Positions 9,940-62,740 of a stretch of DNA of 64,000 nt are shown one piece after another. The position numbers and the translations under genes were made by a program. Position 1 is the first letter of the stretch. Every line of letters starts with the position of its first letter. Under the pieces are notes generated by a model. That model did not search any database. It was given only the letters and a program-made list of their open reading frames with translations, and was not told the origin of the DNA. Location: positions 54,232 to 118,231 of the forward strand of contig DASRAJ010000029.1 in NCBI GenBank assembly GCA_035638255.1, in the 5' to 3' direction. This stretch comes from Chitinophagales bacterium. Lineage in GTDB: Bacteria > Bacteroidota > Bacteroidia > Chitinophagales > UBA10324.

Positions 9940-9974
9940 GTAAACGCAAATGTAGAAGATTTATTTCAATGGAT

Positions 9975-10205: not shown

Positions 10206-10211
10206 CTTATT

Positions 10212-19827: not shown

Positions 19828-19975
19828 AAAGAAATTCCAAATTCCAAAACCCAAATCACAAAAAAATTTCAAAAATCAATCTTCTAAAAATCAAATCGCT
19901 GTTTTGGAGTTTTTCTCTTTGAAATTTATTTGTCCCGATTGATCGGGATGGATTTTGGTTCTTGGAATTTTTCAA
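19828..19975. repeat. MITE-like intergenic element with imperfect terminal inverted arms and an embedded palindrome
   Basis: The left arm gaaattccaaattccaaaacccaaatc faces the right arm ggattttggttcttggaatttttc. The palindrome tttgtcccgattgatcgggatgga (19,929-19,952) is shared with 908-933. Confidence 0.55.
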
Positions 19976-27706: not shown

Positions 27707-27948
27707 TCAACTGTGAACAAATATCTGCTCTTTATTCAGCAGCGGCAGATTTTTAAAGCGCAACATCAACTGCGCCACCGTGACCACATCACGCTGGCAA
27801 TATTCAACGATGCGCTGCAGATTTTTTTCTCTCCAGTAAACTCTTCCCACATCTTTGCCGTCAATGTCATTCTTGGGTGAATCAATGCCGAGAATTAAAG
27901 CAAGAAGTTTGAGCGAAGTGAAATGTTTGATGTCGCCAAAACGCCATA
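27707..27948 (-). pseudogene. orphaned 3' end of a 3'-5' exonuclease gene (displaced by island insertion)
   Basis: It encodes ...LWRFGDIKHFTSLKLLALILGIDSPKNDIDGKDVGRVYWREKNLQRIVEYCQRDVVTVAQL.... By manual alignment, 63 of 80 residues are identical to the C-terminus of the intact gene at 47,529-48,254. Homology stops abruptly at ...cgccata (27,948). No N-terminal exonuclease motifs are present. Confidence 0.8.
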
Positions 27949-29508: not shown

Positions 29509-29527
29509 TGTAGTGCAGTTATGAAAA

Positions 29528-29695
29528 TTATTTGATTGCAGTTTTCTTTTTCTCTTTCTCATCCTCTACAACTTTCTCAAGTTGATAACGAATGAAGTCA
29601 CTAAGCTTTCTTTTATGCTCGTCTGCTAACTTTTGCAATGACTTTCTCAAAGTCTTTGACATCCGTATTAGAATCTGTGTATCGAGGGTCTCCAT
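29528..29695 (-). CDS. small ribbon-helix-helix (CopG/Arc-like) protein, 55 aa (not in ORF track)
   Basis: Translated by hand: METLDTQILIRMSKTLRKSLQKLADEHKRKLSDFIRYQLEKVVEDEKEKKKTAIK. This is a beta-strand/helix/helix RHH pattern. The ORF ends 20 nt upstream of the recombinase ATG on the same strand. Confidence 0.5.
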   Translation of the reverse strand: METLDTQILIRMSKTLRKSLQKLADEHKRKLSDFIRYQLEKVVEDEKEKKKTAIK

Positions 29696-29873: not shown

Positions 29874-31046
29874 TTGCAATTCATGGACAAGATTTTAATG
29901 CTATTAGCAGAGGAAACCGGGGGAACTTGTTACAGTTCTTACAAGTACTGTGTCAACGATTCCGAAGTGCCATCAGTTAATTATGAAGAGAACCAATCCT
30001 ACACGTTACAGCGTGATCGGTATGGAGAAACCGATACAAGCTTAAAAGAAACCAAGGATATCTCGGGTAGAGCAAAACAAATACAAAGCAGTCAACCCTT
30101 GTTTCGCTATTTCCTAGATGGCTCAAGAAGAATTTACAAAGTCGATGATATTGAATTGGGAAGAAAAATTTTTCCAATAATCGCTGGGCAGATAGGTGTT
30201 GCTTGTTGTGAAAGAAAAAGTCCTTCAAAATTTTCACAGACAATTCTTGAACATAATCTCGTATTATCACTACCAAGTGAAGCTGACATCGATGGAAAAA
30301 ATTCAGAAGAATTTTTCAATGCCCTTGCTCAGAGAATTAACAAGCTAGAAAAACTACAGCAGTACAACTTGAGATTTTCAAAAATTCTTTCATATCCAAC
30401 AAGGCAATTGAAGCTAGGTGAAAAATTTGAGAATTTGGGAATTGCAAAAATCCAAGACGAAATGATTGAGTGTGAAAAAAAAATTGTCTCGCAGCTTGTG
30501 AAAAAGAATTTATTGAATCATGATAATTATCTGCTAAAGGATGGTTCATTACAATATAAGCCTATGAGGTCGGGCGATTTTCGTGAATTATCAAAAATCA
30601 AATCGAATTATCAACGTGTGATAGGGCTTTCCAAATATTTTAATCCAGAGCTTTCTATGGACAAAGCTGGGAAGAGCAATGCCACCAAAATTGCAAGGCT
30701 ACCCTTGTATAGTCGTACTCCGGCGTTCATGTATCAAACTGATATTGTTTCAACAGAAGTTTTTTTCAGTATCTGGTATTTGAGAATACGCGAAGTAAGT
30801 GTAACAGAAAGTCCCTTTGCTGGTGTGGTGAAAGTTGAAAAAGTTTTGGTGTCAGATCATGAAATTGAAAATGGATTAAGCAGTGACGAAGTTGACTTAA
30901 TCAGCGCAAATATTATTAATGAACGAAGCCCTGTAGCATATGGAAATGATACACGATGGGCAAACCATCTATACCCGGTCTATCTCACGGAAAAGTATGT
31001 CAAGAGTCAGTACATTAGTGACTATCATTTTCTAAATTTATTTTGA
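29874..31046 (+). CDS. NurA-like nuclease (operon gene 1)
   Basis: 390 aa; the track start is TTG and the first ATG is at 29883. It has two DGS-type motifs, YFLDGSRR and YLLKDGSLQY, spaced as in NurA-domain (RNase H-like) nucleases. Its stop overlaps the start of a HerA-like ATPase gene, the canonical NurA partner. Confidence 0.5.
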   Translation: MQFMDKILMLLAEETGGTCYSSYKYCVNDSEVPSVNYEENQSYTLQRDRYGETDTSLKETKDISGRAKQIQSSQPLFRYFLDGSRRIYKVDDIELGRKIFPIIAGQIGVACCERKSPSKFSQTILEHNLVLSLPSEADIDGKNSEEFFNALAQRINKLEKLQQYNLRFSKILSYPTRQLKLGEKFENLGIAKIQDEMIECEKKIVSQLVKKNLLNHDNYLLKDGSLQYKPMRSGDFRELSKIKSNYQRVIGLSKYFNPELSMDKAGKSNATKIARLPLYSRTPAFMYQTDIVSTEVFFSIWYLRIREVSVTESPFAGVVKVEKVLVSDHEIENGLSSDEVDLISANIINERSPVAYGNDTRWANHLYPVYLTEKYVKSQYISDYHFLNLF

Positions 31047-32698
31047 TGAAGAGGATCGGAAAAGTTGTAGCTACAGAAAAAATGCCTACAACGGTAGACG
31101 AATTTTATTTTTGGACAGATAAGAAGAGAGTCATCAAACCATTTGATGTCGTCAAAGTTGAGCACATCAGAAATTCAGTAACGTTCGGGGTCGTTGAGGA
31201 AATTTCTCATTTCACCGATTCGCCAGGTTTTTTAGCAGGTTATATCTCAAGTGATTTCGGAGATGTCGAGCACGTACCCAACACGGAAAGAATCGGAATG
31301 AATTACGTAAAGGCAAGAGTTGTTGGAAATACAGATGGAATTTTCACACCTGTACTTGACGGGCACATTGTTTCTTTCGCCGATGAAAATGACGTTAAAA
31401 GAGCTTTGGGATTGGATGAAATCAAAAACCCTTTACCATGCGGCTACATAGAAATGTACGAACCTCCTGATTCCATCCGAATTCCTGTACATTTTAATTC
31501 CCATTTTCTAATTGGACCAGAAGGAGCACACTTGAACATTTCAGGAATTTCAGGTCTTGCTTCAAAAACATCTTATGCAATGTTCCTGCTTAAGGCAATT
31601 CAAAATGAACATTTACAATCTAACAGTGATAAGGAATCAGTTGCATTTGTAATTCTCAACGTAAAAGGTAGGGACCTAGTTGCTATAGATGAGCCAAACG
31701 GAGATCTCACTAAAGCGGACAAAGAAATTTACGAGATGCTCAAATTAAGTCCGAAACCCTTTGCCAACGTAAAATATTTTTATCCATATTCAAAACAATT
31801 TCCAACCACGTATGCAAGACCTGATGATGTCAAAAATCAGCAAAAACAAAATAAAGCATTTCAATTTAAGTACATTTTTGAGGATGATAAAGAAAGCATT
31901 GATTTACTTTTCTCCAATGTTGATGATCCTAACCAGACAATGGAATCTATTGTTAACTACATTTCAACTGGTCAAGGCAAGTTTGATGGAATTACCAATT
32001 GGAATGAACTATTAAATGAAATCCATGAGCATACTAAAAAAGGTGATACAAGTGGAAGAGACAGAGAAATTACTGTTTCAAGTTGGAGAAAATTTTATCG
32101 CTTATTTAGGAAAACACTTGATAAGAGTTCAATTTTTGCAAATGGCTTGGGAAAAGGAGAAGTACGTTTACAAGAGCAAATAAAAAATATACAAAAAAAT
32201 GAGGTATTTGTTATTGACGTAGCAAGACTAGACGAGGAAACGCAAGGATTTGTATTCGGAGATGTAATGCGAGCAGTATATGATTTAAAGCTTGGACAAA
32301 TTGAAAGAAAAGAGAGTGATATTCCAAATAAAATAATAGTCTTCATAGATGAACTAAATAAATACGCTTCGAAGGATGTCCCTAAGAATTCTCCAATTCT
32401 TCGGCAAATCATGGATATAACAGAGCGAGGACGTTCTCTAGGAATTATTTTGTTTGGAGCTGAGCAATTCCGTAGTGACATTCATGACAGAGTAAAGGGT
32501 AATTGCGCTTCATATGCATACGGAAGAACGAATGCGATTGAGGTATCCAAAAGCGATTATCAGTATGTGCCAGCAGTTTATAAATCGATGCTTACCAGGC
32601 TTAAACAGGGAGAATACATCATTCAAAACCCGGTGTTTCGTTCTCTTTTAAGCATCAAGTTTCCAAAACCAATTTATAAGCAATTCAAGAACGGATAA
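31046..32698 (+). CDS. HerA/FtsK-superfamily ATPase with HAS-barrel-like N-terminus (operon gene 2)
   Basis: The N-terminus IGKVVATEKMPTTVDEFYFWTD...FDVVKVEH...FGVVEEISH looks like a HAS barrel. The Walker A is deviant (GISGLASKTS); Walker B is IIVFIDELNKYA; RGRSLGIILFGAEQFRSDI resembles the HerA sensor/arginine-finger region. ATG 31,046-31,048 overlaps the upstream TGA (TGATG). Confidence 0.65.
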   Translation: MKRIGKVVATEKMPTTVDEFYFWTDKKRVIKPFDVVKVEHIRNSVTFGVVEEISHFTDSPGFLAGYISSDFGDVEHVPNTERIGMNYVKARVVGNTDGIFTPVLDGHIVSFADENDVKRALGLDEIKNPLPCGYIEMYEPPDSIRIPVHFNSHFLIGPEGAHLNISGISGLASKTSYAMFLLKAIQNEHLQSNSDKESVAFVILNVKGRDLVAIDEPNGDLTKADKEIYEMLKLSPKPFANVKYFYPYSKQFPTTYARPDDVKNQQKQNKAFQFKYIFEDDKESIDLLFSNVDDPNQTMESIVNYISTGQGKFDGITNWNELLNEIHEHTKKGDTSGRDREITVSSWRKFYRLFRKTLDKSSIFANGLGKGEVRLQEQIKNIQKNEVFVIDVARLDEETQGFVFGDVMRAVYDLKLGQIERKESDIPNKIIVFIDELNKYASKDVPKNSPILRQIMDITERGRSLGIILFGAEQFRSDIHDRVKGNCASYAYGRTNAIEVSKSDYQYVPAVYKSMLTRLKQGEYIIQNPVFRSLLSIKFPKPIYKQFKNG

Positions 32699-32718
32699 AT
32701 CACCACTGCACAGTAAAA

Positions 32719-34146
32719 ATGAAAATTTCCATTAATAACTTTAAAACGATAAAAGAACTCAAGGATTTAGAAATAAAGCCTTTGAATGTAATTTCGGGTG
32801 TTAACAGTAGCGGAAAAACTTCCTTTATTCAATTCTTATTGTTATTAAAACAAACTCTCGAAGCTAAGGCAGCCAATCGTCCTCTCATTTTTAACTCAGA
32901 AGAGTATGTAAAATTGGGCGAATATTCGGAGGTAGTTTATGATAAAAGAAAAGAAAACAACATCAGTTTCGATATTGGATTTACTGAAAATGAAATAAGT
33001 TTTTCAGAGCTGGAGTTTCTAAAAATAAAGGGCTGCAACATAAATGTTGTCTATTCTCTCCTTGAAAATGATACAGTCATTCAAACTTTGGAATTTAAAT
33101 ATAGTACACCTGAGTTTATAAAAAAAGAGCATTGGATTAAGTTTACTAAAAGCGGTGATAGCAAGTACGTCTATGAAACCAATACCGCTGTTTTTAATGC
33201 AGAGTTTGAGCAGGTGTACATTAACAATGAAAGCAATCAACCGGGTGGCGATTTATCATTCATTGCTTTTATGCCCCAACTATTTGTGACAGAAATAAAC
33301 AATCCAAATTACCCAGAGATTGATAAAAATCCATTAAAAAAGATAAGCATTGAACCGAAGACAAAAGAGTTACAAGCATTACTCGAAAAGTACTTTGATG
33401 AGCTTTCCTACATTGGACCGTTGCGCGAAATACCTAAAGACAGTTATTCACCGAACAAAAATAATAATAACATTGGGGCTAAAGGACAATACGCTGCTTA
33501 TTTTTTAGAAACGGAAGGTCTAAGAGAAATTAATTATTATAAAATTGAAGATATTAAAAATGAATCAATCCAATACAAACTTTCACGAGGTTCGTTAGCC
33601 GACGCAGTTAAATACTGGATTTGTGATGTCCTTCAATTAGCTAAAGAAATAAAAACAGAAGAGTATAAAGACGAGTTTATTGTTAAGATAGTAAATCATT
33701 TCGGAATTGAAACCACAATAAAACATGTAGGATTTGGGATAAGTCAGATATTGCCAATTATCGTTGAGGGATTGCGCATGGTAGACACTGGGATTCTTAT
33801 TTTGGAACAACCTGAAATACATCTTCATCCTAAAATACAAAGCTCACTATTTGATTTTTTAAACAGCTTAATAATAAGCGGCAAGAAAATCATTGTAGAA
33901 ACACACAGCGCTGAGTTTATAACCAGAATGCGTAGACGCATTGCCGAAGATAGCAGCAATACCTTAGTCGGTAAAGTAAATTTGATCTTCGTGGAAGAAG
34001 ATGAATCCGAGCACATATTTAAGGAACTTGATTTATCAGAATCCGGTTCGCTGTCATATTTCCCCAAAGATTTTATTGAGCAAAGCGAAATTGATTATAG
34101 AGCAATAGTGAAAGCTCAAGCATTAAAAAGACAAAACAAAAAATGA
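32719..34146 (+). CDS. ABC-type (AAA_15/AAA_21/DUF3696-like) ATPase (operon gene 3)
   Basis: Walker A is ISGVNSSGKTS. It also has YIGPLRE, the signature-like GFGISQILPII, Walker B plus D-loop ILILEQPEIHLHP, the H-loop VETHS, and a C-terminal YFPKDFIE. Confidence 0.75.
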   Translation: MKISINNFKTIKELKDLEIKPLNVISGVNSSGKTSFIQFLLLLKQTLEAKAANRPLIFNSEEYVKLGEYSEVVYDKRKENNISFDIGFTENEISFSELEFLKIKGCNINVVYSLLENDTVIQTLEFKYSTPEFIKKEHWIKFTKSGDSKYVYETNTAVFNAEFEQVYINNESNQPGGDLSFIAFMPQLFVTEINNPNYPEIDKNPLKKISIEPKTKELQALLEKYFDELSYIGPLREIPKDSYSPNKNNNNIGAKGQYAAYFLETEGLREINYYKIEDIKNESIQYKLSRGSLADAVKYWICDVLQLAKEIKTEEYKDEFIVKIVNHFGIETTIKHVGFGISQILPIIVEGLRMVDTGILILEQPEIHLHPKIQSSLFDFLNSLIISGKKIIVETHSAEFITRMRRRIAEDSSNTLVGKVNLIFVEEDESEHIFKELDLSESGSLSYFPKDFIEQSEIDYRAIVKAQALKRQNKK

Positions 34147-34153
34147 TAATTGT

Positions 34154-34978
34154 ATGGATTTTAATGCTGTAATCGATGCTTCTGCTTTTATTTGGGATGA
34201 AGAAAAATTTTTACAAGATCAAACCCCATACTATAACTTAGCTAATCAGTTAATGACTTTTGTTGAAATTTTTGAAACCAAAAAGCCGCAGATTTTTTTG
34301 AGGTCAAATTTATTAGCAGAAATGTTAAATGTATTTCCCTGGAATTTAACTGCAGATAAACCTTATTTTTATGAATTCAAAAATGTTGTTTATTCATTTC
34401 TAGCGCGTTTGCCGGAACAGATAAAAGAATTTGATGCAAGTGATAGAGGGGTTTCTTCCAAACCTAACATTATTTATAGCTATTATAATTATGGTGTAAA
34501 GCAAGAAATAACTTTTTTAATATCAGAAATACACTTCAATACGACTATTACCGTTTATTTTACCTTCAAACCAATTTGGGAAGAATCAATTTCCTTAAAT
34601 ACATTATTTAATGGAATCCCTAAGGAACATGAAACAATTATTCTCCCTATTGAGGACAACTTAGAAGGCTTTTTTAATCGCTTTAAGCTTATATTTAAGC
34701 ACAATCCCAAGCATGATAGAAATAAGGGATTCCGAATTGAAAATGGAGAGGAAGTATCACCATTGTCTTGTTTTGACGGTAAAAATGATAAAGTTCCCCA
34801 GTTGTTACTTGATAAAGCGATTAAGAGTAAAGAGGGCAATGGGAAATTATATAGTTATGATAAGGTAAACCAAACATACATATGCTTTGTTTCATCGGGC
34901 TCAAATGAGTATCACGGGTATGATGAAAAGCTTGGTAATATTCCCGCTTCAATAAAAAAATACTTTGGCAAACACTAA
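34154..34978 (+). CDS. hypothetical protein, 274 aa (operon gene 4)
   Basis: The ORF is tightly packed: 7 nt after the ATPase and 2 nt before the next gene. I recognise no family. The C-terminal segment FKHNPKHDRNKG...LYSYDK...SNEYHGYDE has His/Asp-rich patches that could be catalytic. Confidence 0.5.
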   Translation: MDFNAVIDASAFIWDEEKFLQDQTPYYNLANQLMTFVEIFETKKPQIFLRSNLLAEMLNVFPWNLTADKPYFYEFKNVVYSFLARLPEQIKEFDASDRGVSSKPNIIYSYYNYGVKQEITFLISEIHFNTTITVYFTFKPIWEESISLNTLFNGIPKEHETIILPIEDNLEGFFNRFKLIFKHNPKHDRNKGFRIENGEEVSPLSCFDGKNDKVPQLLLDKAIKSKEGNGKLYSYDKVNQTYICFVSSGSNEYHGYDEKLGNIPASIKKYFGKH

Positions 34979-34980
34979 TC

Positions 34981-36540
34981 ATGGCAGCAGAATTCATACC
35001 TTCTATTGGAAAGAATGTTATTGAGACATTGACAATGGGCATGTATGATGATCCACGATTTATTTTCCGAGAGTATGTTCAAAATTCCGCTGATCAAATT
35101 GATGCAGCAACTAAGAGTGGCATCTTTGCCAAAAAAGAAGATGGTGATATTCACATACTGATTGATAAGAAGAAAAAGCAAATAATAATTGAAGATAATG
35201 CTACGGGTATTGAGAGCGCAAAAGTGCAGGCGTTTTTAGGCAACATCGCACAATCACCAAAAAATAGATATTTGGATAAAGGATTTAGAGGTATCGGACG
35301 TTTAGGCGGCTTAGGTTATTGCGATAAACTAACCTTTGAAACTTCTTACAAGGGAGAAAAGATTAAAAGCACAATGGTTTGGGATGCCAAGCAATTGAGA
35401 GAAATAATTAATGATACATCCATTAGAATTGAAGCGGCTGAACTTATTAGTGCAATTACAAATTACTCTAAAGAATCCGAAGCTGAAAATACTCATTATT
35501 TTAAAGTTATTCTGGATGATGTAACCAATGATGATTTGCTCAGTGTAAATGCAGTTAGGGAGTATCTATCTATGGTTGCACCTGTACCGTTTTCCAATAA
35601 CTTTTCATTTAAAACTAAAATTTACCAAGAGGCAGAAAAAGAAAAAATCATATTTGACGAATATACAATATACATTAATGAGGATCAACTATTTAAAGCA
35701 TATAAGAATAGTGTTTTTAATAAAGGGAATATAGTTGATGAAATTTATGATGTTGAATTTTATAAATCAGAAGTTGAAATGAAAGGGGAGGCAAATAAAA
35801 AAGCAAAAAAGCATAAAGAAGTTCTATTCTGGTGTTGGTATGGAATAAGTAAGAATATGAGGCAAATCCCTGAAGAAAATTTTGAAAAGTTTTTACGATT
35901 AAGAAAACATAATATTCAAATTGGTTTAGAGAATAGATTGGATGATTTTCATAAAGATGATACCGGCAATCGTTATTTTATAGGAGAAGTACACGCCCTA
36001 AATAGCAGATTAGTTCCGAACGCAAGACGAGATTTTTTTGAAGATAATTCTATACTGCAATTATTTAAGCAAGAATTGAGAGATTTTTTTTATTCAACTT
36101 TATATAATTTATACTATGATTTTTCAAAGAAAAATAGTTCAATAAAGGATTTAAAGGAGACTGAAAAGTTTAGGGAAGAGTATAGTCATAAAATTAAAGA
36201 TAAGTTTATTAGTAAGGAGGAGCGAGAGATTTTAGGAAAAGAAGCTGTAAAAAAAGAACAAAAAGCAGAAAAAGCAAAAAAGGAATTAATTCGACTTCAG
36301 AAGGAATATCCCAATAGCACGCTATCACGAGTAATAAAAGAAACATCACCGATAGATTTAACCGATCCAGATAGCCATCCCATAGTAGGTAATACTTCTA
36401 AGGTTAAAACAAAGGAAACTAATAGATTGTCGGATTCTGAAAAAAAATTATTGGCTCGTATTTTCAAAGTTATTGCTAACTATTTCGATAAGAAAACTTC
36501 TGATACCATCATCCAGAAAATAAAGGATGAATTGCAATGA
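34981..36540 (+). CDS. GHKL (Bergerat-fold, HATPase_c_3 / MORC-Hsp90-like) ATPase with K/E-rich coiled-coil tail (operon gene 5)
   Basis: N-box REYVQNSADQIDAA (E-x-x-x-N-x-x-D), G1 box IIIEDNATGIE, G2 box GFRGIGRLGGLGYC. The C-terminal ~130 aa are lysine/glutamate-rich. Confidence 0.75.
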   Translation: MAAEFIPSIGKNVIETLTMGMYDDPRFIFREYVQNSADQIDAATKSGIFAKKEDGDIHILIDKKKKQIIIEDNATGIESAKVQAFLGNIAQSPKNRYLDKGFRGIGRLGGLGYCDKLTFETSYKGEKIKSTMVWDAKQLREIINDTSIRIEAAELISAITNYSKESEAENTHYFKVILDDVTNDDLLSVNAVREYLSMVAPVPFSNNFSFKTKIYQEAEKEKIIFDEYTIYINEDQLFKAYKNSVFNKGNIVDEIYDVEFYKSEVEMKGEANKKAKKHKEVLFWCWYGISKNMRQIPEENFEKFLRLRKHNIQIGLENRLDDFHKDDTGNRYFIGEVHALNSRLVPNARRDFFEDNSILQLFKQELRDFFYSTLYNLYYDFSKKNSSIKDLKETEKFREEYSHKIKDKFISKEEREILGKEAVKKEQKAEKAKKELIRLQKEYPNSTLSRVIKETSPIDLTDPDSHPIVGNTSKVKTKETNRLSDSEKKLLARIFKVIANYFDKKTSDTIIQKIKDELQ

Positions 36541-38516
36541 GAAATATTTTGCTATTAGAACCGAACTATAAAAATAAATATCCTCCTATAGGATTAATGA
36601 AGATTTCTACCTATCATAAGATGATAGGAGATAAGGTGACTTTTTATAAGGGCGATTTAAGAGATTTGATTATTGATCAGCTCTATGAAGAATGCTTAAA
36701 AAGATTAAGAAGGATTGATAAATCAATCGAGTGGCAACCTAAAGCTTACTTAATTAAGCAGTACATAAAAACCAAGAAATCAACTTTACTAGAAGAATTA
36801 AATTTTGGACATTCTCAATACTCACCTCTCATTGAAAAATGTTTATTAGGTTATTCCCTTTTTTATCGTAAAAAGGAATATGAAAATCATCCTATGTATG
36901 ATCGGGTTTATGTAACAACCTTATTCACGTTTTACTGGAAGATTACAATCGAAGCAATTCACTTCGCAAAGAAATTGGTTAAAAGACCAGATCAACTTTT
37001 AATAGGAGGCGTGATGGCGTCATTGTTGACGAAGGAGATCGAAACGGAAACGGGTATTAAACCTATTGCCGGATTACTTGACCAGCCAGGCATATTAGAT
37101 AAGGGATTAAAGGCAAGAAAAATAATCATTGACAATCTTCCTTTGGATTACTCAATTCTCGATGAAATTGATTATGTGTACCCGGCTCAAAATGCGTATT
37201 TCACTTTTATGACAAAAGGGTGTACAAGAAAATGTTCTTTCTGTTCAGTACCGAAGCTTGAGCCAACTTATAAACCAAAGATTGAAACTCTTGATAAATT
37301 TAAGGAAATTAAAAAACGTTTTGGAGAGCAACGGAATCTCTTATTAATGGATAATAATGTGCTTGCTTCGCCTCAATTCCCGGAGATTATAGAGGAGATT
37401 AAGAGAATGGGGTTTAATAAAGATGCCACTTTCATTGAACCTAATCAACTGAAAATTGCAATTAGAAATCTAAGAAGTGGCTATAATGATAAGGCATACG
37501 TTAAACGTTCATTCAAACTTATTCATGCTCATTTGAAAAGACTAAAGAATGAAAACAAACAAAAGTATTATGATGTTCTTCGTCAACATAACCTTCTAAG
37601 AATTGAAACAACCACGAAGGAGAATTTGCTTAAGGCAAATACTCTGATTAAGCACTTATATGAGAAATACAGAAGTAAAGCGCCTAGGCAGAGAATTGTC
37701 GATTTTAATCAAGGTACAGATGCACGATATGTAACTGAAGAATTAATGAAACTTATGAGTGAAATTCCAATCCAGCCTTTGAGAATTGCGTTTGATTACA
37801 TTGGGCTGAAAAAGATATATATTAATGCAGTTGAGTTAGCGGCTAAGTACGGAATTAAGGAACTATCCAATTATATTCTTTATAACTTTCATGATACACC
37901 TGATGATCTTTATGAAAGATTGCAAATTAATTTGGAATTAGGAGAAAGATTGGGTATACATATTTATTCATTTCCGATGAAATTTATTCCGCTATTTGGG
38001 GAAGCTGCAAAGGATCGAAATTTTGTTTCGCAACCTAATTGGAATAAGAAATTTATTAGAGCGATACAAGCTATCTTAAATGTAACAAAGGGAATTGTGG
38101 CACCCGGAAGAAGTTTTTTTGAAAAGGCATTTGGTGCTGATATTAAGGAATTTAGGAAGCTATTGTATATGCCCGAGACATATATCATTTATCGCCATTT
38201 ATTTGAAAAGGAGTTAATGTACACTCCAATTTGGGAAGAAGAATATCTTAATTTATTGAACAGTGAAGAGAGAGAGGAAGCTGAAAATATCATTAAGACA
38301 AACGATTTTACAAACATTCAGGCTAATACTTCAAATCCGAAAATTCAGCATTTTCTAAGGCACTATACAATACCCAGAGGAAGCATTGATAGGAATGATC
38401 TTGAATATAAGAAACTTAAAAAACAATTCGATAGGTTAATTAAACGACACTATCTAACTTTAACTTATGATTTTGAAGCACTCACTGTGAGAAGAAAATA
38501 TTGCGCAGTAGTATAG
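36537..38516 (+). CDS. large radical SAM enzyme with B12-binding-like N-terminal domain (operon gene 6)
   Basis: 659 aa. The N-terminus ILLLEPNYKNKYPPIGLMKISTYHKMIGDKVTFY resembles the B12-binding-domain opening of class B radical SAM enzymes. CX3CX2C is MTKGCTRKCSFCSV. A ~300-aa C-terminal extension is unassigned. An ATGA overlap joins it to the upstream gene. Confidence 0.8.
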   Translation: MRNILLLEPNYKNKYPPIGLMKISTYHKMIGDKVTFYKGDLRDLIIDQLYEECLKRLRRIDKSIEWQPKAYLIKQYIKTKKSTLLEELNFGHSQYSPLIEKCLLGYSLFYRKKEYENHPMYDRVYVTTLFTFYWKITIEAIHFAKKLVKRPDQLLIGGVMASLLTKEIETETGIKPIAGLLDQPGILDKGLKARKIIIDNLPLDYSILDEIDYVYPAQNAYFTFMTKGCTRKCSFCSVPKLEPTYKPKIETLDKFKEIKKRFGEQRNLLLMDNNVLASPQFPEIIEEIKRMGFNKDATFIEPNQLKIAIRNLRSGYNDKAYVKRSFKLIHAHLKRLKNENKQKYYDVLRQHNLLRIETTTKENLLKANTLIKHLYEKYRSKAPRQRIVDFNQGTDARYVTEELMKLMSEIPIQPLRIAFDYIGLKKIYINAVELAAKYGIKELSNYILYNFHDTPDDLYERLQINLELGERLGIHIYSFPMKFIPLFGEAAKDRNFVSQPNWNKKFIRAIQAILNVTKGIVAPGRSFFEKAFGADIKEFRKLLYMPETYIIYRHLFEKELMYTPIWEEEYLNLLNSEEREEAENIIKTNDFTNIQANTSNPKIQHFLRHYTIPRGSIDRNDLEYKKLKKQFDRLIKRHYLTLTYDFEALTVRRKYCAVV

Positions 38517-39271: not shown

Positions 39272-40807
39272 TCAGAATTTCATAGCATGATCTATAGTGT
39301 TGAGCACGATGGGCAAAGTTTTCATTTTTGAAAAATCTTTTTTCTGTTCTTCATGATTAATCGCAAGGGATAAATAAATAATCGTTGCTCTCACGAGTTT
39401 TAAAAGCTTTAATGTTTTCGCTTCAAATTGAGATCGTGTTATTGTATAAGAAATGTCGTTACTCTCGTCATAAACTTTAGGTAGAAATTCAAAATCTGAA
39501 ACGATTTTGAATGCTTTATGCTCAATATGATTTCTAATTATCGCAATTTCTCTTGCATCTGGTTCAATTACGGTCTCAAAACCTTGCTCGGTCTCATATA
39601 AATCTTTGCTTAACCAGAATAGTCCACGAAGCGCCCAATTGTCCGACTGAGCGAAAAAATTTCTGAGAGTTCTTTTTTCATAATTTTCATACCACAAAGA
39701 TCGAAAGCTTACTCTTACTGGATTAATTCCGAGTTTTAAATAATCGTTAAGAAGGAATGCCGTTTTGTCAAGTATCGAATACGCTAATCGGAAGGACATT
39801 TTTATTTGTTCAATGTAGTAGGAATACCGAGCAGTTTCAAATGTTTCTAGAATTACAATGTCCGTATCTGAATAATGCGGCTTTGTACTGTGAGTAGAGT
39901 CAAAGTATGAAAATCTCGCTGTTCCAAATTCTTGTTTAATCTGGTTGAACATTGTTATATAGATCGGTGGTTTTTTGATCTCAAAAATGAGATTGGGCAA
40001 ATTCAAGCAATCATGACATGCAACGTTGTAATTGCCCAAATCATTAAGAGGATTTACGTAAAGTTTGTTTGCTAATGACCATAATCGATATGCTCTTAAT
40101 CTTTTTTCTTTCCCAAGAGGATATTTATTAAGGTTTGGGATTTTATTTCTCAATTCTTCAGGTATTGCTGGTTCAAGATGATCATGTAGATGTCTGAAAA
40201 AAGAAGCAGCACCTGGTTCCAAATATTTTTCTAATTGGAGTGCTGAATCAAGGTAATGATAACTGAAGATGTTAAAAATGCTCCGATGACTCATATCAAA
40301 TAGATAGTTTCCATAATAGTATAGCCCATTTCCCTTATTTGCCAGTGCCATAGGGAAATATGGAATAATTTCTAGCGTTCGTGTCCAATATTCCTGTGCC
40401 TCTACAAATCTTCCGATGTAGGATAAAGTGTTTCCAAGATTAGTAAGTATTTGACATTTTCTATTCGGAATAGTTTGATCAAACCCGGGTAGTGAAATGG
40501 CTTTTCGCAGGTGAAAAATTTCCTCCGAAATTTCAGACAATTGAAAATTCCAAGTGTCATTTTTATCAGAATACTTTAATTTTTTTGTGTAATTCCAACC
40601 ATTGGAAAGATCATAGTGATAAACTACTTTGTTTGCTTCACTTAATTTATCATAGTCAATTTGTTTCGCTAAAGCGAAGGCGTGTTCAATTCCACTAAGA
40701 CTTGAACTATCAAATGAAAGATCGAAAAGATTTCCAATGATGTCGATCTGTCCTCCCTCAGAGTAGGAGGTAAGATCAGTGATCTGGAGAAGAGATTTAA
40801 GCTCCAT
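39272..40807 (-). CDS. TPR + HEPN-domain protein (LA2681-like HEPN suspected)
   Basis: 511 aa. TPR-like segment GRFVEAQEYWTRTLEIIPYFPMALANKGNGLYYYG. The C-terminal AIIRNHIEHKAF carries an R-x4-H (RNxxxH) HEPN motif. Confidence 0.5.
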   Translation of the reverse strand: MELKSLLQITDLTSYSEGGQIDIIGNLFDLSFDSSSLSGIEHAFALAKQIDYDKLSEANKVVYHYDLSNGWNYTKKLKYSDKNDTWNFQLSEISEEIFHLRKAISLPGFDQTIPNRKCQILTNLGNTLSYIGRFVEAQEYWTRTLEIIPYFPMALANKGNGLYYYGNYLFDMSHRSIFNIFSYHYLDSALQLEKYLEPGAASFFRHLHDHLEPAIPEELRNKIPNLNKYPLGKEKRLRAYRLWSLANKLYVNPLNDLGNYNVACHDCLNLPNLIFEIKKPPIYITMFNQIKQEFGTARFSYFDSTHSTKPHYSDTDIVILETFETARYSYYIEQIKMSFRLAYSILDKTAFLLNDYLKLGINPVRVSFRSLWYENYEKRTLRNFFAQSDNWALRGLFWLSKDLYETEQGFETVIEPDAREIAIIRNHIEHKAFKIVSDFEFLPKVYDESNDISYTITRSQFEAKTLKLLKLVRATIIYLSLAINHEEQKKDFSKMKTLPIVLNTIDHAMKF

Positions 40808-40814
40808 AGTTTGT

Positions 40815-41603
40815 TCAAAAATTTATTTCGGCTTGATGGTCAAAGTTCTTCTTCTTTTGTGTGAGATTGCTTTGCTTACTTACTACACGAAGTTTTGCCA
40901 CTTGGCGATGGTAGACGGAAAATTCTTTTCTTAAAAGTTCGTCCTTGAACTGCTTCCGATATTCGTTATCACCAAAACCGATATATTCAATCTGAGCAGG
41001 GTTAACATTTTTTATTGTGATAAAGTCTTCAACAATTTTGTTGAAAGTCATTGGAGGAGTGTGATCAACCGTTGCCTCAACATACTTGATTTTTACTCTC
41101 ATTTTTTCATCAAGAACACATCCCTCTTTATCAATCGTCTTGTTTTTGTAATTGACCAAATGCTGAATTATTTGATCCGCAATTGCGCTTCGAGCTGATA
41201 GCTTGAATATTTTAATCGGTTCTTGATGAGTATCATTGTCTATGCAATTTAGATAACTGAAATCTGTCTCTGTGCCATCAACTCGTACTATGTGAAAACA
41301 TTTTGTTTTTTGCCATTGCGTATCAGTCCGGACAATAATATCCTTAATTCCTTTTCCAATTTTCTTTTCATATTCAGGATGTCCCTTCAAAAGTTCAGCG
41401 ACAAATTCAAAATCAGACTTCTCAAGAGAATCTTTCACCTTGTACTTATTGAGAATCGCTTTAGTAAAAGTCTTTAGCTCTAGTTTAGTTTTGAAAATCT
41501 TTTCAGCAATTTCAAATGTTGGTCTTTCCTTCATGGAAGAAATTGATTTTATTGCAATCATTTTTGGAATGAGTAAAGTAGAAAATGAATTGAATGTAGC
41601 CAT
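40815..41603 (-). CDS. DUF3223-like protein with possible HNH-like C-terminal region
   Basis: 262 aa. CFHIVRVDGTETDFSYLNCI matches my recollection of the DUF3223 core (D-F-S-Y-x-x-C). The C-terminal VDHTPP...FSVYHRQVAKLRVVSKQSN is loosely HNH-like. It ends 7 nt before the HEPN gene. Confidence 0.4.
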   Translation of the reverse strand: MATFNSFSTLLIPKMIAIKSISSMKERPTFEIAEKIFKTKLELKTFTKAILNKYKVKDSLEKSDFEFVAELLKGHPEYEKKIGKGIKDIIVRTDTQWQKTKCFHIVRVDGTETDFSYLNCIDNDTHQEPIKIFKLSARSAIADQIIQHLVNYKNKTIDKEGCVLDEKMRVKIKYVEATVDHTPPMTFNKIVEDFITIKNVNPAQIEYIGFGDNEYRKQFKDELLRKEFSVYHRQVAKLRVVSKQSNLTQKKKNFDHQAEINF

Positions 41604-41639
41604 GAAAATATTTCAACAGCGATAGTTGCATGCAGTATT

Positions 41640-42660
41640 TTCGTTGCAATCGCTAATACAAATGCTAAGGGGTGCAAATGCACTTCTTAGATTGATGTCT
41701 GTTCCGCTTCGCTCTACAGACAGTGAGTTATCGTGTTGATTTCATCCAAGCTGATACTACAGGTAAAGCGGTGTTCAGCTTCCTTGTTCAGCAAGAAAAT
41801 GTGCCAAGCCATTGCAACACTTGTAATGATCTCAAAAGCTTGCAGCGGTCATTACAAGAGTTGCATGCCCTTCGCTGAACCGGGCACTGCGTGCTTCCGT
41901 TCAGTCTTCGGGTGCTGTCGCAGCTTGTCATATTTTCTGCAGTTCACTTCGTCAGCTTCACTGCAGGCTTTCTGTCCTTTGTGGAATATTCTTCATCACG
42001 GACTATAGTTATTTGAACCGCTCCATTTCGCAACCTCTCTCCATATAGCCCTGAATTCGGCTTGTATTACCTCTACAACGAGACACAGCGCTCATACAAC
42101 CACGAATTCAACGTGCTATGCCTCCCATGCTCATTCCGCTTTATTGAAGTCCGTATTCCGAAAGATCCACAAAGTCCATCGCCTGCATCAATTGGCTCGC
42201 CTGCGACACTCAGTCGGCTCCGTGCCTGACATGGTTTTTGTTCTCCGCATTGCTTGTCTCACACCAGGAGCAATCACACAAGCAGCTATCACCCAATGAA
42301 CAAAAACACACGCCAGGCACTGCGTGTTTTCAACATAGCTGTACATCGTCCTCCTACGTCGGACTAAAATGTACACCACCTCCTTCGTACTCGCAACGGC
42401 GAGCAGCACAGCGACTGCAATGAACTATTGCATTCGCTTTTCCTCTCGCTTGCTGAAGGCTCTTTTACCTGCGCGTCTCTACTTCTAACTATTAAAATCA
42501 CTTGAGATGATTGTTATCCCTCATCTTGAAATTTGAATTCCATTTACTGAGAAGCGAAAGCGGACGAAACTTCAACAGAATTTGCCTATTGATATACTTA
42601 CTACTGTTCTCACATTTTACATTATGTGATAAGAATGTGGAGAAGAAACATTTAGTAAAA
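41640..42660. ncRNA. candidate large structured RNA (or other structured DNA element); family unknown
   Basis: This ~1 kb has only 61-91-aa ORFs with no gene-like features. Hand counts give 34/60 and 35/60 G+C (lines 41,881 and 42,181) against 20/60 in flanking line 41,401. A 16-position stem with one mismatch pairs 41,814-41,829 with 41,849-41,864, nested inside gttcagc/gctgaac. A 7-bp stem ctgcagt/actgcag pairs 41,937-41,943 with 41,960-41,966. The 11-nt ggcactgcgtg occurs at 41,883 and 42,316. Confidence 0.3.
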
Positions 42661-42687
42661 TTTATTTAATAGGTTGATTAATTTCTT

Positions 42688-43029
42688 TCAAAATGCAATT
42701 TTTCTAATTTGCCTGACCTCTATCTTTCCGTCTACCTGGTATATTGGACAGCCCATTGCTAACGAAATCGCGTTTTCTAAATCTGTTGCTTTAATAAAAA
42801 TGAATCCGTTAATATTATTTTCCTTAGTAAAGGAGCTATCAGATATTATTTTATTCTTCCCGCTTATTTGTTTCCCAGTTGGCTCAATCGGTTCACCTAA
42901 TATATAAGCATCATTATCTTTCAAGACTTTTATCCAGTCTAACCACTTTTGCAAATAATCCTGCATCTGTTGCGGAGATAGTTTCTTAAGCACTCCTTCT
43001 TCATGAAAAAAGTAAACGAACTTTTCCAT
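42688..43029 (-). CDS. YciI-like (YCII/DGPF) family protein
   Basis: 113 aa. ...FIFIKATDLENAISLAMGCPIYQVDGKIEVRQI matches the YciI-family C-terminal pattern (igGy.i.a.s.deA...a...P......iEvRpi). Confidence 0.6.
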   Translation of the reverse strand: MEKFVYFFHEEGVLKKLSPQQMQDYLQKWLDWIKVLKDNDAYILGEPIEPTGKQISGKNKIISDSSFTKENNINGFIFIKATDLENAISLAMGCPIYQVDGKIEVRQIRKIAF

Positions 43030-43073: not shown

Positions 43074-43529
43074 TTATTTTATTCTTGTTTTTCCTTTATG
43101 AGGCGTGCCCTTTCCAGTGGTCATCAGAGTATGCAGACTGTTACCTACAAAAAGGTTCCAGCCCTTCTCACAATCTGCATAGCATTCCATCTTGGGGGTT
43201 AGTCCCATGTGAGTCATATCAACCTTTACACCCTCTTTAGTTTTACTTATTTCCCAAACCACTCTCGTATCCTTCCATTCTTTTTTGTCGTTCATTGTGT
43301 GCAGAAAACAGTCTGTTACATACCACACTATTTTTTTACTCTGTTCTAGTTCAGTGATTTTAAATTTTACCCATGTGTCGCGGGAATAGTAGGTAAACAC
43401 ATCATTTTTCTTTTCCGAGTTGCCATCAATGTCTTCACCCCACCATGCTTTGGGATTATTGATATGCTTCATAGCTTCTTCGGGGGTAATTTTTTCAGAA
43501 ACACTAATGTGATAATTTTTCTTTTCCAT
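43074..43529 (-). CDS. SRPBCC (AHSA1/START-like) family protein, paralogue 1
   Basis: 151 aa, paralogous to the next two ORFs (MEKKNY..., W-x-x-D/E-x-x-G-x-S, KIVWxVTD, KEWKDT, the MTHxGL motif and ECYxxCxxGW). Confidence 0.7.
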   Translation of the reverse strand: MEKKNYHISVSEKITPEEAMKHINNPKAWWGEDIDGNSEKKNDVFTYYSRDTWVKFKITELEQSKKIVWYVTDCFLHTMNDKKEWKDTRVVWEISKTKEGVKVDMTHMGLTPKMECYADCEKGWNLFVGNSLHTLMTTGKGTPHKGKTRIK

Positions 43530-43555
43530 TATGATAAATTTCTTTGAATTAAAAT

Positions 43556-44014
43556 TTATTTGGAAGACTTTTGTTTATCTTCAAATGTAATTCCCTTGCC
43601 TTCGCTAATTAATTTGAATAAACTTTCCTTAATATAACTGTCCCAACCTTTTGAACAGTCGTTGTAACATTCTATGCCAGGAACTATCCCAACATGAGTA
43701 AAATTTATTTGTGTTGAATTTTCTTTCTGTGAAATTTCAAAAACCATTTTGGTATCCTTCCATTCTTTTTTATTATTAATCCAATGGAGGTTGCAGTCTG
43801 TAACTAACCAAACAACTTTCTTGGCAGGAATCATTTCAACAATTTTGTGAGTTACAAAAGTTTCACCGAAGCGAACTGTAAAAACATCATTGAGTTTTTG
43901 TGAGTTGCCTTCTACACTTTCTGTCCACCATTTTGAAACAGCAGTGATGCAGTTGAAAACGTCTTTCGGAGATTTTGCGACTTCAATTGTTGTAGTGTAA
44001 TTTTTCTTTTCCAT
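43556..44014 (-). CDS. SRPBCC (AHSA1/START-like) family protein, paralogue 2
   Basis: 152 aa. Its first 23 aa are identical to paralogue 3 (MEKKNYTTTIEVAKSPKDVFNCI). It has the same motif set as paralogue 1. Confidence 0.7.
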   Translation of the reverse strand: MEKKNYTTTIEVAKSPKDVFNCITAVSKWWTESVEGNSQKLNDVFTVRFGETFVTHKIVEMIPAKKVVWLVTDCNLHWINNKKEWKDTKMVFEISQKENSTQINFTHVGIVPGIECYNDCSKGWDSYIKESLFKLISEGKGITFEDKQKSSK

Positions 44015-44036
44015 ATCCTTACTTTGTTTTAATAAT

Positions 44037-44471
44037 TTATATCGCTTTACCAGTGGTTATAAAGTTGAACAGCCAGTCTTTAATGATCATATTCCAGCCC
44101 TGCTCACACTTTGCATAACATTCCTTTTCAGGCACAAGTCCTTCGTGTGTAAAGTGAAGCACGGTTTTATCACCTTTAGTGGTTATCTCAAAAATCATTT
44201 TGGTATTTGTCCATTCATTCTTGTCCTTTTCAATCCAATTTAGTTTACTGTCTGTAACAAGCCACACAACTTTTTTATCAGGCACAACCTCAACAAGTTT
44301 ATGTTTTGAATAATGCCTATCGCCAAACCTGATTATAAATTCATCATTCAGTTTTGTGCTGCTGCCTTCAAATTCTTTTGACCACCATTTTGAAACATTA
44401 TTGATGCAGTTGAAAACGTCTTTCGGAGATTTTGCGACTTCAATTGTTGTAGTGTAATTTTTCTTTTCCAT
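44037..44471 (-). CDS. SRPBCC (AHSA1/START-like) family protein, paralogue 3
   Basis: 144 aa. Its 69-nt 5' end (44,403-44,471) is identical to 43,946-44,014. Confidence 0.7.
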   Translation of the reverse strand: MEKKNYTTTIEVAKSPKDVFNCINNVSKWWSKEFEGSSTKLNDEFIIRFGDRHYSKHKLVEVVPDKKVVWLVTDSKLNWIEKDKNEWTNTKMIFEITTKGDKTVLHFTHEGLVPEKECYAKCEQGWNMIIKDWLFNFITTGKAI

Positions 44472-62736: not shown

Positions 62737-62740
62737 AAAG

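Follow-up and report, generated by a model that had tools for sequence, protein, structure and literature searches.

Elaborately folded large RNAs are rare in bacteria (OLE, GOLLD, ROOL and the omega RNAs are examples), and their discovery has led to membrane-linked ribonucleoproteins, RNA cages and RNA-guided nucleases. Type III systems pair a ToxN-like toxin, rather than a HEPN protein, with an RNA antitoxin that is made of short direct repeats in tandem with a terminator behind them. Long GC-rich intergenic regions (GC-IGRs) are enriched for structured noncoding RNAs (PMC11109978, PMC6429828); OLE, GOLLD, ROOL, HEARO/omega RNA and raiA were found by looking for such regions, and the same heuristic led to the region described here. 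By subtraction from Table 1 of the GC-IGR survey, 1,034 of its 1,766 ORF-free candidates are ‘low-ranking’ or ‘unnamed’ (PMC11109978), which counts against reading any one such region, including ours, as an RNA.

An earlier note on this DNA had described about 1 kb of GC-rich, ORF-free and foldable sequence between two genes of the window (the whole 64-kb stretch that was analysed, whose numbering is used throughout). We confirm that observation and the GC-rich segment is real, but its extent shrinks to the 791-nt core listed in Table 1 (48.7% G+C by base count); positions 41,604–41,689 lie outside the element because they are part of the conserved 5′ region of the neighbouring DUF3223 gene. 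The G+C counts given in that note are exact (34/60 in the line starting at 41,881, 35/60 at 42,181 and 20/60 in the coding line at 41,401), as is the C-richness of the plus strand at 42,061 (18 C versus 9 G). The core is compositionally distinct, with sharp edges: both flanks have 29–35% G+C and the AT-rich domain around it has 33–35%. The part of the window from 1 to 23 kb, which is probably native, has 43.4% G+C, with intergenic regions of up to 45.8%, and the core is only ∼5 points above this 43.4%, so that ‘GC-rich’ is a relative term; the argument from a GC-rich region in an AT-rich genome needs the native genome (43% here) as its baseline and not the surrounding island alone. No internal gap of the window is longer than the one that holds the core, and the other gaps of at least 150 nt have 28–46% G+C (maximum 45.8%). 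The core thus lies in a long, ORF-free intergenic region with a G+C content above that of the other intergenic regions of the window, as in the GC-IGR studies, and by their criteria it falls among the ‘unnamed’ or low-ranking candidates. On the plus strand the core has 230 C and 155 G; its minus strand is G-rich and purine-rich, with G exceeding C by about 20–29% across ∼600 nt. Such an asymmetry on one strand fits a transcribed, strand-specific element and not a cluster of DNA palindromes.

Other copies of the region were found only in L001/L008, L009 and L018, all 99.9–100% identical and from the same strain, with a single SNP relative to L018 at 42,500. Assemblies from independent sources read through both junctions (L009, SRR6184671; L018, JGI Ga0134122; L001/L008, ERZ27256645), so the region did not arise from misassembly. 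Homologues beyond the same strain were not found and the number of covarying pairs is therefore zero. Plasmid and phage records showed no blastn similarity to the region, and five exact patterns gave only chance matches in viral contigs. One exact pattern for the two-copy motif returned only the same strain (L018) from the JGI metagenomes, and 47 loci from the GTDB genomes that were chance or tandem-repeat matches without extended similarity; the largest nucleotide collections were covered by exact patterns alone. Searches with the neighbouring proteins gave little more. In 5.8 billion protein clusters the YCII protein has a single homologue, at 60% identity, whose 1.1-kb contig offers 49 nt of flank; judged by this homologue the lineage is barely sampled, which is plausibly why relatives are missing. 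The DUF3223 protein had no match in genome contigs; 22 homologues of it were found, and the contigs of seven were read, none of which has the spacer. The 462-aa protein of the left flank and the YCII protein are known in this arrangement only, and searching with them found no strain lacking the island. No relatives of the serine recombinase were found in viral contigs.

Known RNA and mobile-element classes were compared with the locus. Rfam 15 (4,227 covariance models, including those for tmRNA, RNase P, group I and II introns, OLE, GOLLD, ROOL, HEARO and raiA) gave no match at the gathering score anywhere in the window, and only noise at E ≤ 10 (41,300–43,000) and at E ≤ 5 (two sub-windows), for example the archaeal snoRNA sR15, which scored 22 bits against 40, and a human TCL6 region; the earlier note, working by eye, had likewise been unable to place the region in a known family. 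ARAGORN found no tRNA or tmRNA gene in the 64 kb. A ToxI-like type III antitoxin RNA was rejected, since the only tandem repeat is one of 15 nt × 2.5 copies (42,259–42,296) and the adjacent gene encodes a DUF3223 protein, not an RNase. An integron attC array was also rejected, there being no RYYYAAC…GTTRRRY pair 40–160 nt apart on either strand. The neighbouring ORFs scanned include no gene of the integron-integrase (tyrosine-recombinase) type and no relaxase or Rep gene, and the region is free of iterons and of direct-repeat arrays. A MITE would be expected to recur in its genome and to have terminal inverted repeats and a target-site duplication; within the 64-kb window the core is single-copy, the best end-to-end inverted repeat (41,692–709 with 42,558–575) matches at 14 of 18 positions, which is about chance level, and no flanking target duplication is visible by eye. 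No convincing promoter (Bacteroidota −33/−7 or sigma-70) was found in 42,481–42,687 or around the element, and no recognisable intrinsic terminator bounds it. Two terminator-like matches, one on each strand, were discarded as by-products; they are the arms of the single palindrome that forms the 99-nt hairpin.

Table 1. Features of the core and its surroundings (window coordinates; I numbers refer to inverted repeats).
Feature	Coordinates	Strand	Evidence
Candidate template of a ∼0.8-kb structured RNA (GC-rich self-complementary core)	41690..42480	− (best guess)	Composition, fold z, no ORF
Predicted closing long-range helix, 5′ arm (plus numbering)	41760..41779		Inverted repeat I2, 20 nt, 75% complementary
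Predicted closing long-range helix, 3′ arm	42452..42471		Partner of 41760..41779
Predicted three-way-junction domain	41795..41937		Inverted repeats I1 and I3; pair probabilities 0.95–1.00
Predicted long-range stem domain	41962..42187		Pair probabilities 0.94–1.00, both strands
99-nt imperfect hairpin	42222..42320	−	Inverted repeats I5 and I20; pair probability 0.99–1.00
Predicted hairpin	42340..42375		Inverted repeat I7; pair probability 0.96–0.98
Predicted hairpin, 5 + 6 base pairs	42410..42438		Pair probability 0.94–0.99, both strands
11-nt repeat GGCACTGCGTG, copy 1	41883..41893		With flanks, 15/17 match over 17 nt
11-nt repeat GGCACTGCGTG, copy 2	42316..42326		Exact copy
5′ region of DUF3223 cassette (promoter and 5′ UTR, possibly N-terminal extension)	41535..41689	−	32.9% G+C; outside GC-rich element
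Left neighbour, DUF3223/HamC-like gene	40815..41534	−	Pfam DUF3223, 3.6e-26; PADLOC HamC, 2.2e-35
HEPN_LA2681 + TPR protein, predicted RNase effector, operon with DUF3223	39272..40807	−	Pfam HEPN_LA2681, 3.1e-69
Right neighbour, YCII-like gene	42688..43029	−	Pfam YCII, 3e-07
AT-rich spacer downstream of YCII gene	42481..42687	−	29% G+C

The predicted fold contains many helices with a pair probability of at least 0.9. The closing helix has a pair probability of 0.97–0.99 on the plus strand and is also present in the minus-strand MFE structure; by itself, the inverted repeat I2 that forms it is at chance level. In the three-way-junction domain, a helix between 41,795–41,809 and 41,923–41,937 encloses hairpins at 41,813–41,865 and 41,874–41,905, the second of which carries a GCAC-loop-GUGC mini-hairpin formed by the first copy of the 11-nt repeat; the local z for 41,800–41,999 is −3.2 on the plus strand and −4.1 on the minus strand. 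The first hairpin is the long one that had been picked out by eye, and it holds (41,813–41,829 with 41,849–41,865, 17 nt, 94% complementary, 19-nt loop); we estimate that ∼0.01 hairpins of this kind are expected by chance per 64 kb. The shorter motifs reported with it are also present, gttcagc at 41,773 and 41,786 with gctgaac at 41,874, and ctgcagt at 41,937 with actgcag at 41,960, while gtctgt (41,697) and acagac (41,716) lie one base from where they had been placed. The long-range stem is built from three collinear helices, all perfect Watson–Crick (41,962–968 with 42,181–187, 41,977–985 with 42,166–174 and 41,997–42,004 with 42,148–155), and its interior is C-rich on the plus strand and has no local structure except for a hairpin at 42,045–42,119 (z ≥ 0 for 42,000–42,299). 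The 99-nt hairpin has arms at 42,222–42,243 and 42,298–42,320 and an inner helix between 42,251–257 and 42,278–284, and includes both the second copy of the 11-nt repeat and the tandem repeat. The two copies of the 11-nt repeat are where the earlier note saw them and there are no others in the window; with an estimated ∼0.13 expected in 1.1 kb the repeat is near chance level, and a search of 596 Gb of genomes gave no sign that it is conserved elsewhere.

Relative to shuffled sequences, the fold z over 861 nt is −6.0 for the minus strand and −6.9 for the plus strand, compared with −3.9 to +3.0 for 12 control segments of the same length and similar G+C from the window and with a local z of about 0 for the flanking genes. 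The excess of structure in the core is real. It is unevenly spread, as 42,000–42,300 has z ≥ 0 locally and is involved in long-range pairs only. The two strands fold about equally well, and 90–93% of the MFE pairs are plain Watson–Crick on either; a signal of this kind could reflect palindromy at the DNA level. The local z weakly favours the minus strand, being lower there in seven of nine windows across 41,600–42,599, with the widest gap at 42,200–42,399 (−5.3 versus −2.6, with two G–U pairs that exist on the minus strand only). From a reading of the inverted-repeat list, the wobble pairs of I2 and I3 favour the plus strand and those of I5 the minus strand. Neither G–U balance nor z-score singles out a strand. 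The 12 MFE hairpins of either strand all lack GNRA and UNCG tetraloops. As all of the genes flanking the core run in the minus direction and the minus strand is the G-rich and purine-rich one, we propose the minus strand as the transcribed strand, as a best guess.

The region is non-coding. Its short ORFs span 41–91 aa, the largest being of the size given in the earlier note, and the longest stop-free stretch of the core is 96 codons. These ORFs, the purine excess of the minus strand (typical of coding strands in the window) and a G+C content near that of native genes could be taken to suggest coding DNA, either a gene decayed by frameshifts or at least one small protein, a reading that is scarcely credible given the protein searches. 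The 23 stop-free fragments of at least 30 aa from the six frames, searched as a concatenate, matched none of 5.8 billion protein clusters at E ≤ 1, a search that is also sensitive to spurious ORFs annotated on homologous RNA regions; the check for a frameshifted gene that the earlier note had called for is therefore negative, with no protein homology in any frame. Pfam gave nothing above noise for the six frames of the core, the sole sub-threshold match being DUF7226 (E of 0.2; 12 bits, the cut-off being 27), and the longest minus-strand fragment (78 aa) had no match among 1.84 billion representatives with full HMMER. There is no three-base periodicity, as the period-3 signal-to-noise across 41,700–42,300 is 0.46–0.74 (window median 2.19, tenth percentile 0.87), and the source assembly calls no gene in the region. 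The earlier note had raised a noncoding RNA that works with the adjacent conflict genes; such a partner RNA could serve the HEPN RNase and the DUF3223 protein as antitoxin, decoy, guide or scaffold. DUF3223 is also found in eukaryotic RNA-binding La proteins, which would suit such a role, as would the position of the core directly upstream of DUF3223-HEPN_LA2681 in the same orientation and the fact that HEPN domains are RNases (PMC3710099). We nevertheless consider a partnership of this kind very improbable, and the comparison with other DUF3223 loci does not support the core as a conserved component of a DUF3223–HEPN module. The DUF3223 homologues with 54–64% identity whose upstream DNA could be read have quite different partners and upstream gaps of only 53–325 nt (53 nt in L004–7, 140 nt in L019/20, 325 nt in L021/22 and 129 nt in L023/24), and neither blastn nor nhmmer found similarity to the core there; the same holds for L003, with at most 441 nt to the contig end (214 nt to a partial 74-aa gene). 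The closest relative, L002 (77%; JGI 3300039435, Ga0435790_0012490), shares only the gene-proximal ∼150 nt (about 41,535–41,685), which is 86–88% identical to the 5′ region of our cassette, and has no HEPN gene after its DUF3223 gene. The start of the DUF3223 gene is probably Met24, at 41,534, where most of its homologues (239 aa) also begin; over these 239 aa the protein is 100% identical to P0001. The core has none of the tandem repeats seen in type III antitoxins, and we found no link in the literature between DUF3223 or LA2681-type HEPN proteins and an RNA.

The core sits at the edge of an AT-rich accessory domain that is rich in defence genes and carries a large serine recombinase 12 kb away, and it begins exactly at a module boundary, where the similarity to L002 ends (∼41,685). 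This position would suit a non-functional relic caught between two independently acquired cassettes (YCII/SRPBCC and DUF3223–HEPN), whether left over from a mobile element, from an RNA gene that is no longer active or from the noncoding DNA of a GC-richer donor, in which old palindromes give the folding signal and serve no present role. The failure to find homologues anywhere in our searches, the absence of a promoter or terminator signature and helices that are nearly all Watson–Crick on both strands agree with it, and in the GC-IGR survey 250 of 4,714 GC-rich intergenic regions were mobile or repeat candidates (PMC11109978). We regard the relic, which with a DNA-level cis element is a main rival of the RNA reading, as somewhat unlikely, because neutral DNA would be expected to drift towards AT (the spacers have 28–39% G+C) whereas the core stays at 48.7% with sharp edges, and because it occurs once in 64 kb, without convincing terminal inverted repeats (the best being the chance-level 14/18) or a target duplication, and resembles no plasmid or phage record. 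The recombinase and the domain edge, together with the long near-perfect hairpin and a complementarity that is nearly symmetrical between the strands with few wobble pairs, could also point to a cis element acting as double- or single-stranded DNA, for example where the island recombines or attaches, or where transfer or single-strand replication begins. This is improbable: the core lacks iterons, direct-repeat arrays and attC R′′/R′ core pairs, no relaxase, Rep or integron-integrase gene was seen among the neighbouring ORFs scanned, and the strong G/C asymmetry over 600 nt is unexpected for a cluster of palindromes. The att sites of serine recombinases are, moreover, far smaller than the 790 nt of this segment.

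We prefer, tentatively and with a probability of about 0.4, to read the core as an orphan structured RNA of ∼0.8 kb encoded on the minus strand and restricted to its lineage; the interpretation as a large noncoding RNA is partly supported. In its favour are the composition, the strand asymmetry, the excess of folding with its many high-probability helices, the lack of coding signals and the recurrence of the core in independent assemblies. Against it are the lack of homologues outside the strain, of an Rfam match, of GNRA or UNCG tetraloops and of a promoter or terminator, and the similar folding of the two strands. The analysis shows that the core is noncoding, distinct in composition, more foldable than expected, present once in the window and the same across independent assemblies; its transcription, strand, fold and any function are inferred, as follows. 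The core would be a single-copy noncoding segment under selection for self-complementarity, and its transcription would start in the AT-rich spacer (42,481–42,687) and proceed from the minus strand. The transcript is predicted to form a closed multi-domain structure in which the closing helix surrounds all of the domains: the three-way junction, the long-range stem (41,962–42,004 with 42,148–42,187), the 99-nt hairpin and the two short hairpins. It would be a unit of its own, apart from the DUF3223–HEPN module, whose operon has its own conserved 5′ region, and any action on its neighbours would most likely be in cis, possibly as a barrier or leader, rich in hairpins, that separates the YCII/SRPBCC genes from a DUF3223–HEPN operon that may be toxic. 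A stronger form of the orphan-RNA reading, in which the core would be the founding and only sampled member of a new ∼0.8-kb class of multi-domain RNAs from a barely sampled Bacteroidota-like lineage, encoded on the minus strand where a defence island ends and with a function unlike those of known RNA families, is somewhat unlikely. If true, a new class of 0.8-kb RNAs next to a defence module built on an RNase would merit further work; the present value is modest, a verified ORF-free, strongly foldable orphan region that fails every known-family test that was run.

Compared with described systems, the core resembles ToxI, CptI and TenpI in being noncoding and in lying upstream of, and co-oriented with, an operon for a predicted RNase (a HEPN protein here); it differs in having no repeat array, in the intervening DUF3223 gene, which has a conserved 5′ region of its own, and in homologous loci that lack the spacer. 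With attC sites, MITEs, origins of transfer and single-strand origins it shares dense Watson–Crick complementarity on both strands, and with mobile-element palindrome clusters a place at a cassette boundary in a recombinase-carrying accessory domain, but it has no attC motifs, second copy or significant terminal repeats, its G/C asymmetry is strong, and no transfer or replication gene is found in the neighbouring ORFs scanned. Against the ‘unnamed’ and ‘low-ranking’ GC-IGR candidates (Narunsky et al., 2024; PMC11109978), its 791 nt and z of ∼−6 are above the size and folding that we would presume for a typical member. The known large RNAs (OLE, GOLLD, ROOL, HEARO/omega RNA and raiA) differ from the core, which has no covariance-model match even at E ≤ 10, is represented by a single unique example, has no GNRA-capped or UNCG-capped hairpins in its MFE structure and is not accompanied by a typical partner gene (e.g. 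IscB/TnpB, oapA). Like these RNAs, the core is several hundred nucleotides long, ORF-free and enriched in G+C relative to its surroundings, is situated among mobile and defence genes, and has a predicted fold that is multi-domain and closed by long-range helices.

Of all gene-free gaps inside the window, the one that separates the YCII-like from the DUF3223 gene is the longest; it divides into a core and two AT-rich flanks (see the table). The G+C content of the core exceeds that of its surroundings by 14–20 points; the enrichment is sharp-edged, in a genome with AT-rich spacers. The hand counts and coordinates on which the earlier note had based its description of a GC-rich region were all reproduced, one being displaced by a single base. 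That description is sound relative to the surroundings but much less so relative to the probably native genome (window positions up to 23 kb; mean 43.4%), which the core exceeds by only ∼5 points and whose intergenic regions reach 45.8% G+C.

Features of the gap and its neighbourhood (listed predicted helices have a pair probability of at least 0.9)
Feature	Position	Strand	Remarks
Large serine recombinase (Resolvase + Recombinase domains)	27,895–29,562	minus	left edge of AT-rich domain
DUF3223/HamC-like gene	40,815–41,534	minus	next to HEPN_LA2681+TPR gene
AT-rich stretch	41,535–41,689		155 nt, 32.9% G+C
Core	41,690–42,480		791 nt, 48.7% G+C; plus strand C 230 versus G 155
Predicted closing helix round whole core	41,760–779 / 42,452–471		probability at least 0.9 on plus strand
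Predicted helix	41,795–809 / 41,923–937		closes the next two hairpins into a three-way junction
Predicted hairpin	41,813–41,865		17 nt, 94% complementary; by our own estimate, ∼0.01 such hairpins would arise by chance in 64 kb
Predicted hairpin	41,874–41,905
Three predicted helices	41,962–42,004 paired with 42,148–42,187		collinear, perfect
Predicted hairpin	42,222–42,320		99 nt
Predicted hairpins	42,340–375 and 42,410–438
AT-rich spacer	42,481–42,687		207 nt, 29% G+C
YCII-like gene	42,688–43,029	minus

An assembly artefact is ruled out: in independent assemblies that span both junctions, the same sequence appears at 99.9–100% identity. The copies are a 170-kb ENA contig (L001/L008), a Logan contig extending from the YCII side to 42,412 (L009) and the 1,068-nt JGI contig Ga0134122_10534914 (L018), which covers 41,584–42,651 with one SNP at 42,500. 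This last contig is almost exactly the intergenic region, breaking within ∼100–170 nt of the core on both sides; coverage may have been low, or the GC-richer part may have been recovered better, or alternatively the element could have different flanks in that community.

The region was described as free of ORFs, and the protein-level analysis agrees. The longest ORF is 91 amino acids, and no stop-free stretch exceeds 96 codons. The 23 six-frame stop-free fragments of at least 30 amino acids, joined, gave no match at E ≤ 1 among 5.8 billion protein clusters, a search that would likewise have revealed spurious ORFs predicted in homologous regions elsewhere. Pfam returned a single sub-threshold match in six frames (12 bits, with the cut-off at 27), and a full HMMER search of a 78-residue minus-strand fragment found no match among 1.84 billion representatives. 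Three-base periodicity is 0.46–0.74 across the core, below the 10th percentile of the window (0.87), compared with 3.3–4.3 in the adjacent DUF3223 gene. Within the reach of the tools used, these six-frame searches were thus also negative for the frameshifted gene that had been considered as an alternative.

The abundance of hairpins noted by eye corresponds to a genuine folding excess. Folding of 861 nt gave minimum free energies (MFE) of −295 kcal/mol for the minus and −258 kcal/mol for the plus strand, with z-scores of −6.0 and −6.9, respectively, against dinucleotide shuffles, whereas 12 control segments of the same length and 45–50% G+C from the same window gave z-scores of −3.9 to +3.0, placing the core ∼3 control standard deviations out. 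The z-scores of 200-nt windows in the flanking genes do not go beyond about ±2. Within the gap, the signal is concentrated at 41,600–42,000 and 42,200–42,500; the C-rich middle (42,000–42,300) is without local structure and takes part via long-range pairs only. GNRA and UNCG tetraloops are absent from all 12 MFE hairpins on either strand, a result to be read with the imprecision of single-sequence predictions in mind; the lack of such loops is unusual in an elaborate RNA.

Structured RNAs are usually G- and purine-rich, as is the minus strand of the core. This, the minus orientation of all neighbouring genes and a more negative local z-score on that strand in seven of nine windows favour minus-strand transcription. 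The strand gap is largest at 42,200–42,399 (−5.3 on the minus and −2.6 on the plus strand), where two G-U pairs are possible on the minus strand only. The assignment is weakened because the whole-element z-scores of the two strands are equal within error, the MFE pairs are 90% (minus) and 93% (plus) Watson–Crick, and the wobble positions in the long-range helices I2 and I3 favour the plus strand.

No search yielded a relative beyond the same strain. Plasmid and phage collections contained no blastn match, and exact-pattern scans of viral contigs gave chance matches only. A pattern with both copies of an 11-nt repeat at the observed spacing recovered only the same strain from JGI metagenomes; in GTDB genomes it matched 47 loci, in GC-rich genomes and tandem repeats, with no further similarity to the core. 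The motif GGCACTGCGTG is regularly spaced in unrelated genomes of Terriglobia (219-nt period), a Bacteroidetes MAG (435-nt period) and Phycisphaerales (L027, 742–1847; L048, 1069–2384; L061, 420–1522); these loci look like tandem repeats, have no similarity to the element and account for part of the 47 chance matches. No island-free variant was present among contigs with identical flanking proteins. The absence of relatives is weak evidence, since there is almost no sampling of the lineage, the adjacent YCII protein having only one homologue (60%) among the 5.8 billion clusters.

For the DUF3223 gene, Met24 (41,534) is a more probable start than 41,603: most homologues are 239 amino acids long and the source database has a 239-residue product. 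The ATG annotated at 41,603 is not conserved, which leaves 41,534 or 41,561 as the probable start. The closest relative, L002 (77% protein identity), has 86–88% DNA identity over the 5′ end of the gene and ∼150 nt upstream (window 41,535–41,689 and L002:33–235). The similarity stops near 41,685, exactly where the core begins; the conserved 5′ region thus belongs to the DUF3223 cassette itself and does not include the core. The final 32 nt of the L002 contig are AT-rich and unrelated, and L002 also carries a 56-nt insertion in which a nearby hairpin recurs in inverted form (TTTTCTGAAAGAGAAAAG). Homologues of 54–64% identity lie 53–325 nt from the preceding gene and are followed by a 470-residue protein without Pfam domains, an SduA/Shedu nuclease, an HNH protein or no partner; blastn and nhmmer found no similarity between these loci and the core. 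Across the DUF3223/HamC-like proteins of 54–77% identity (window, L002, L004–L007 and L019–L024) the downstream partners differ, and DUF3223 plus a nuclease looks from these gene orders like a shuffling two-gene defence module not described as such; PADLOC covers DUF3223 only as Hachiman type II HamC.

The core lies in an AT-rich accessory domain (∼30–46 kb, 33–35% G+C). To its left are, in order, the serine recombinase (no relatives in viral contigs), NsnB-like, NsnC-like, HATPase_c_3, 659-residue radical SAM, membrane, HEPN_LA2681+TPR and DUF3223/HamC-like genes; on its right, the YCII gene is accompanied by three SRPBCC paralogues in tandem and by other small genes. The stretch 29,874–38,516 (+) is a same-strand defence-like run that includes 390- and 551-residue proteins without Pfam domains besides the NsnB-like AAA_15 ATPase (2e-62), NsnC-like, HATPase_c_3 and radical SAM proteins. 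The SRPBCC/AHSA1-like paralogues (43,074–44,471, minus; 144–152 residues) include two with 77% DNA identity. Elsewhere, nested AT-rich inverted repeats of AAATTCCAAA-like units occupy 10,044–10,196 within a 272-nt gap (9,940–10,211), a 32-nt inverted repeat (75%) lies at 19,858–19,933, and the last 1,264 nt (62,737–64,000; 28.5% G+C, no ORF of at least 90 residues) may represent either a gene that continues beyond the window or a long AT-rich spacer.

The sharp-edged rise in G+C, the strong strand asymmetry and the folding excess suggest that the core was most likely shaped by selection for self-complementarity; a decayed gene or random spacer would hardly account for them. Our leading, still tentative, reading (probability roughly 0.4) is an autonomous or cis-acting structured RNA, for which the core would be the template on minus-strand transcription. 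Somewhat less likely is a relic, now without function, of DNA that was foreign, mobile or part of an RNA gene and became trapped at the cassette boundary, and a cis element acting at the DNA level is improbable. The earlier note's suggestion that the RNA works with the adjacent conflict genes did not hold up: given the short gaps, varied partners and lack of core-like sequence at other DUF3223 loci, and the end of the L002 similarity at the core edge, an RNA partner of the HEPN/DUF3223 pair is quite improbable. With no protein match and such low periodicity, a coding function is the most doubtful of all.

As for known families, no Rfam 15 family matched, either across the window at the gathering score or in three sub-windows searched with permissive E-values, in line with the failure to recognize a family by eye. 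The region proposed as a large structured RNA is upheld as non-coding and strongly folding and, as an RNA, remains a candidate. The window contains no tRNA, tmRNA or second copy of the core. Neither significant terminal inverted repeats around the core nor a convincing promoter or terminator at the region was found, two terminator-like matches being both arms of the 42,222–42,320 palindrome. An attC array was rejected as there are no attC core pairs. Type III antitoxins consist of a tandem-repeat array, whereas the only tandem repeat here is 15 nt × 2.5. The core is a verified, unusually large and well-folding orphan, a candidate RNA rather than a demonstrated one. In the GC-IGR surveys behind the use of GC-rich intergenic regions as a predictor of structured RNAs, 4,714 regions included 2,948 known ORFs, 607 low-ranking candidates, 427 unnamed regions and 250 mobile or repeat candidates (PMC11109978); with one unique representative, the core would count in that scheme as an unnamed or low-ranking case.
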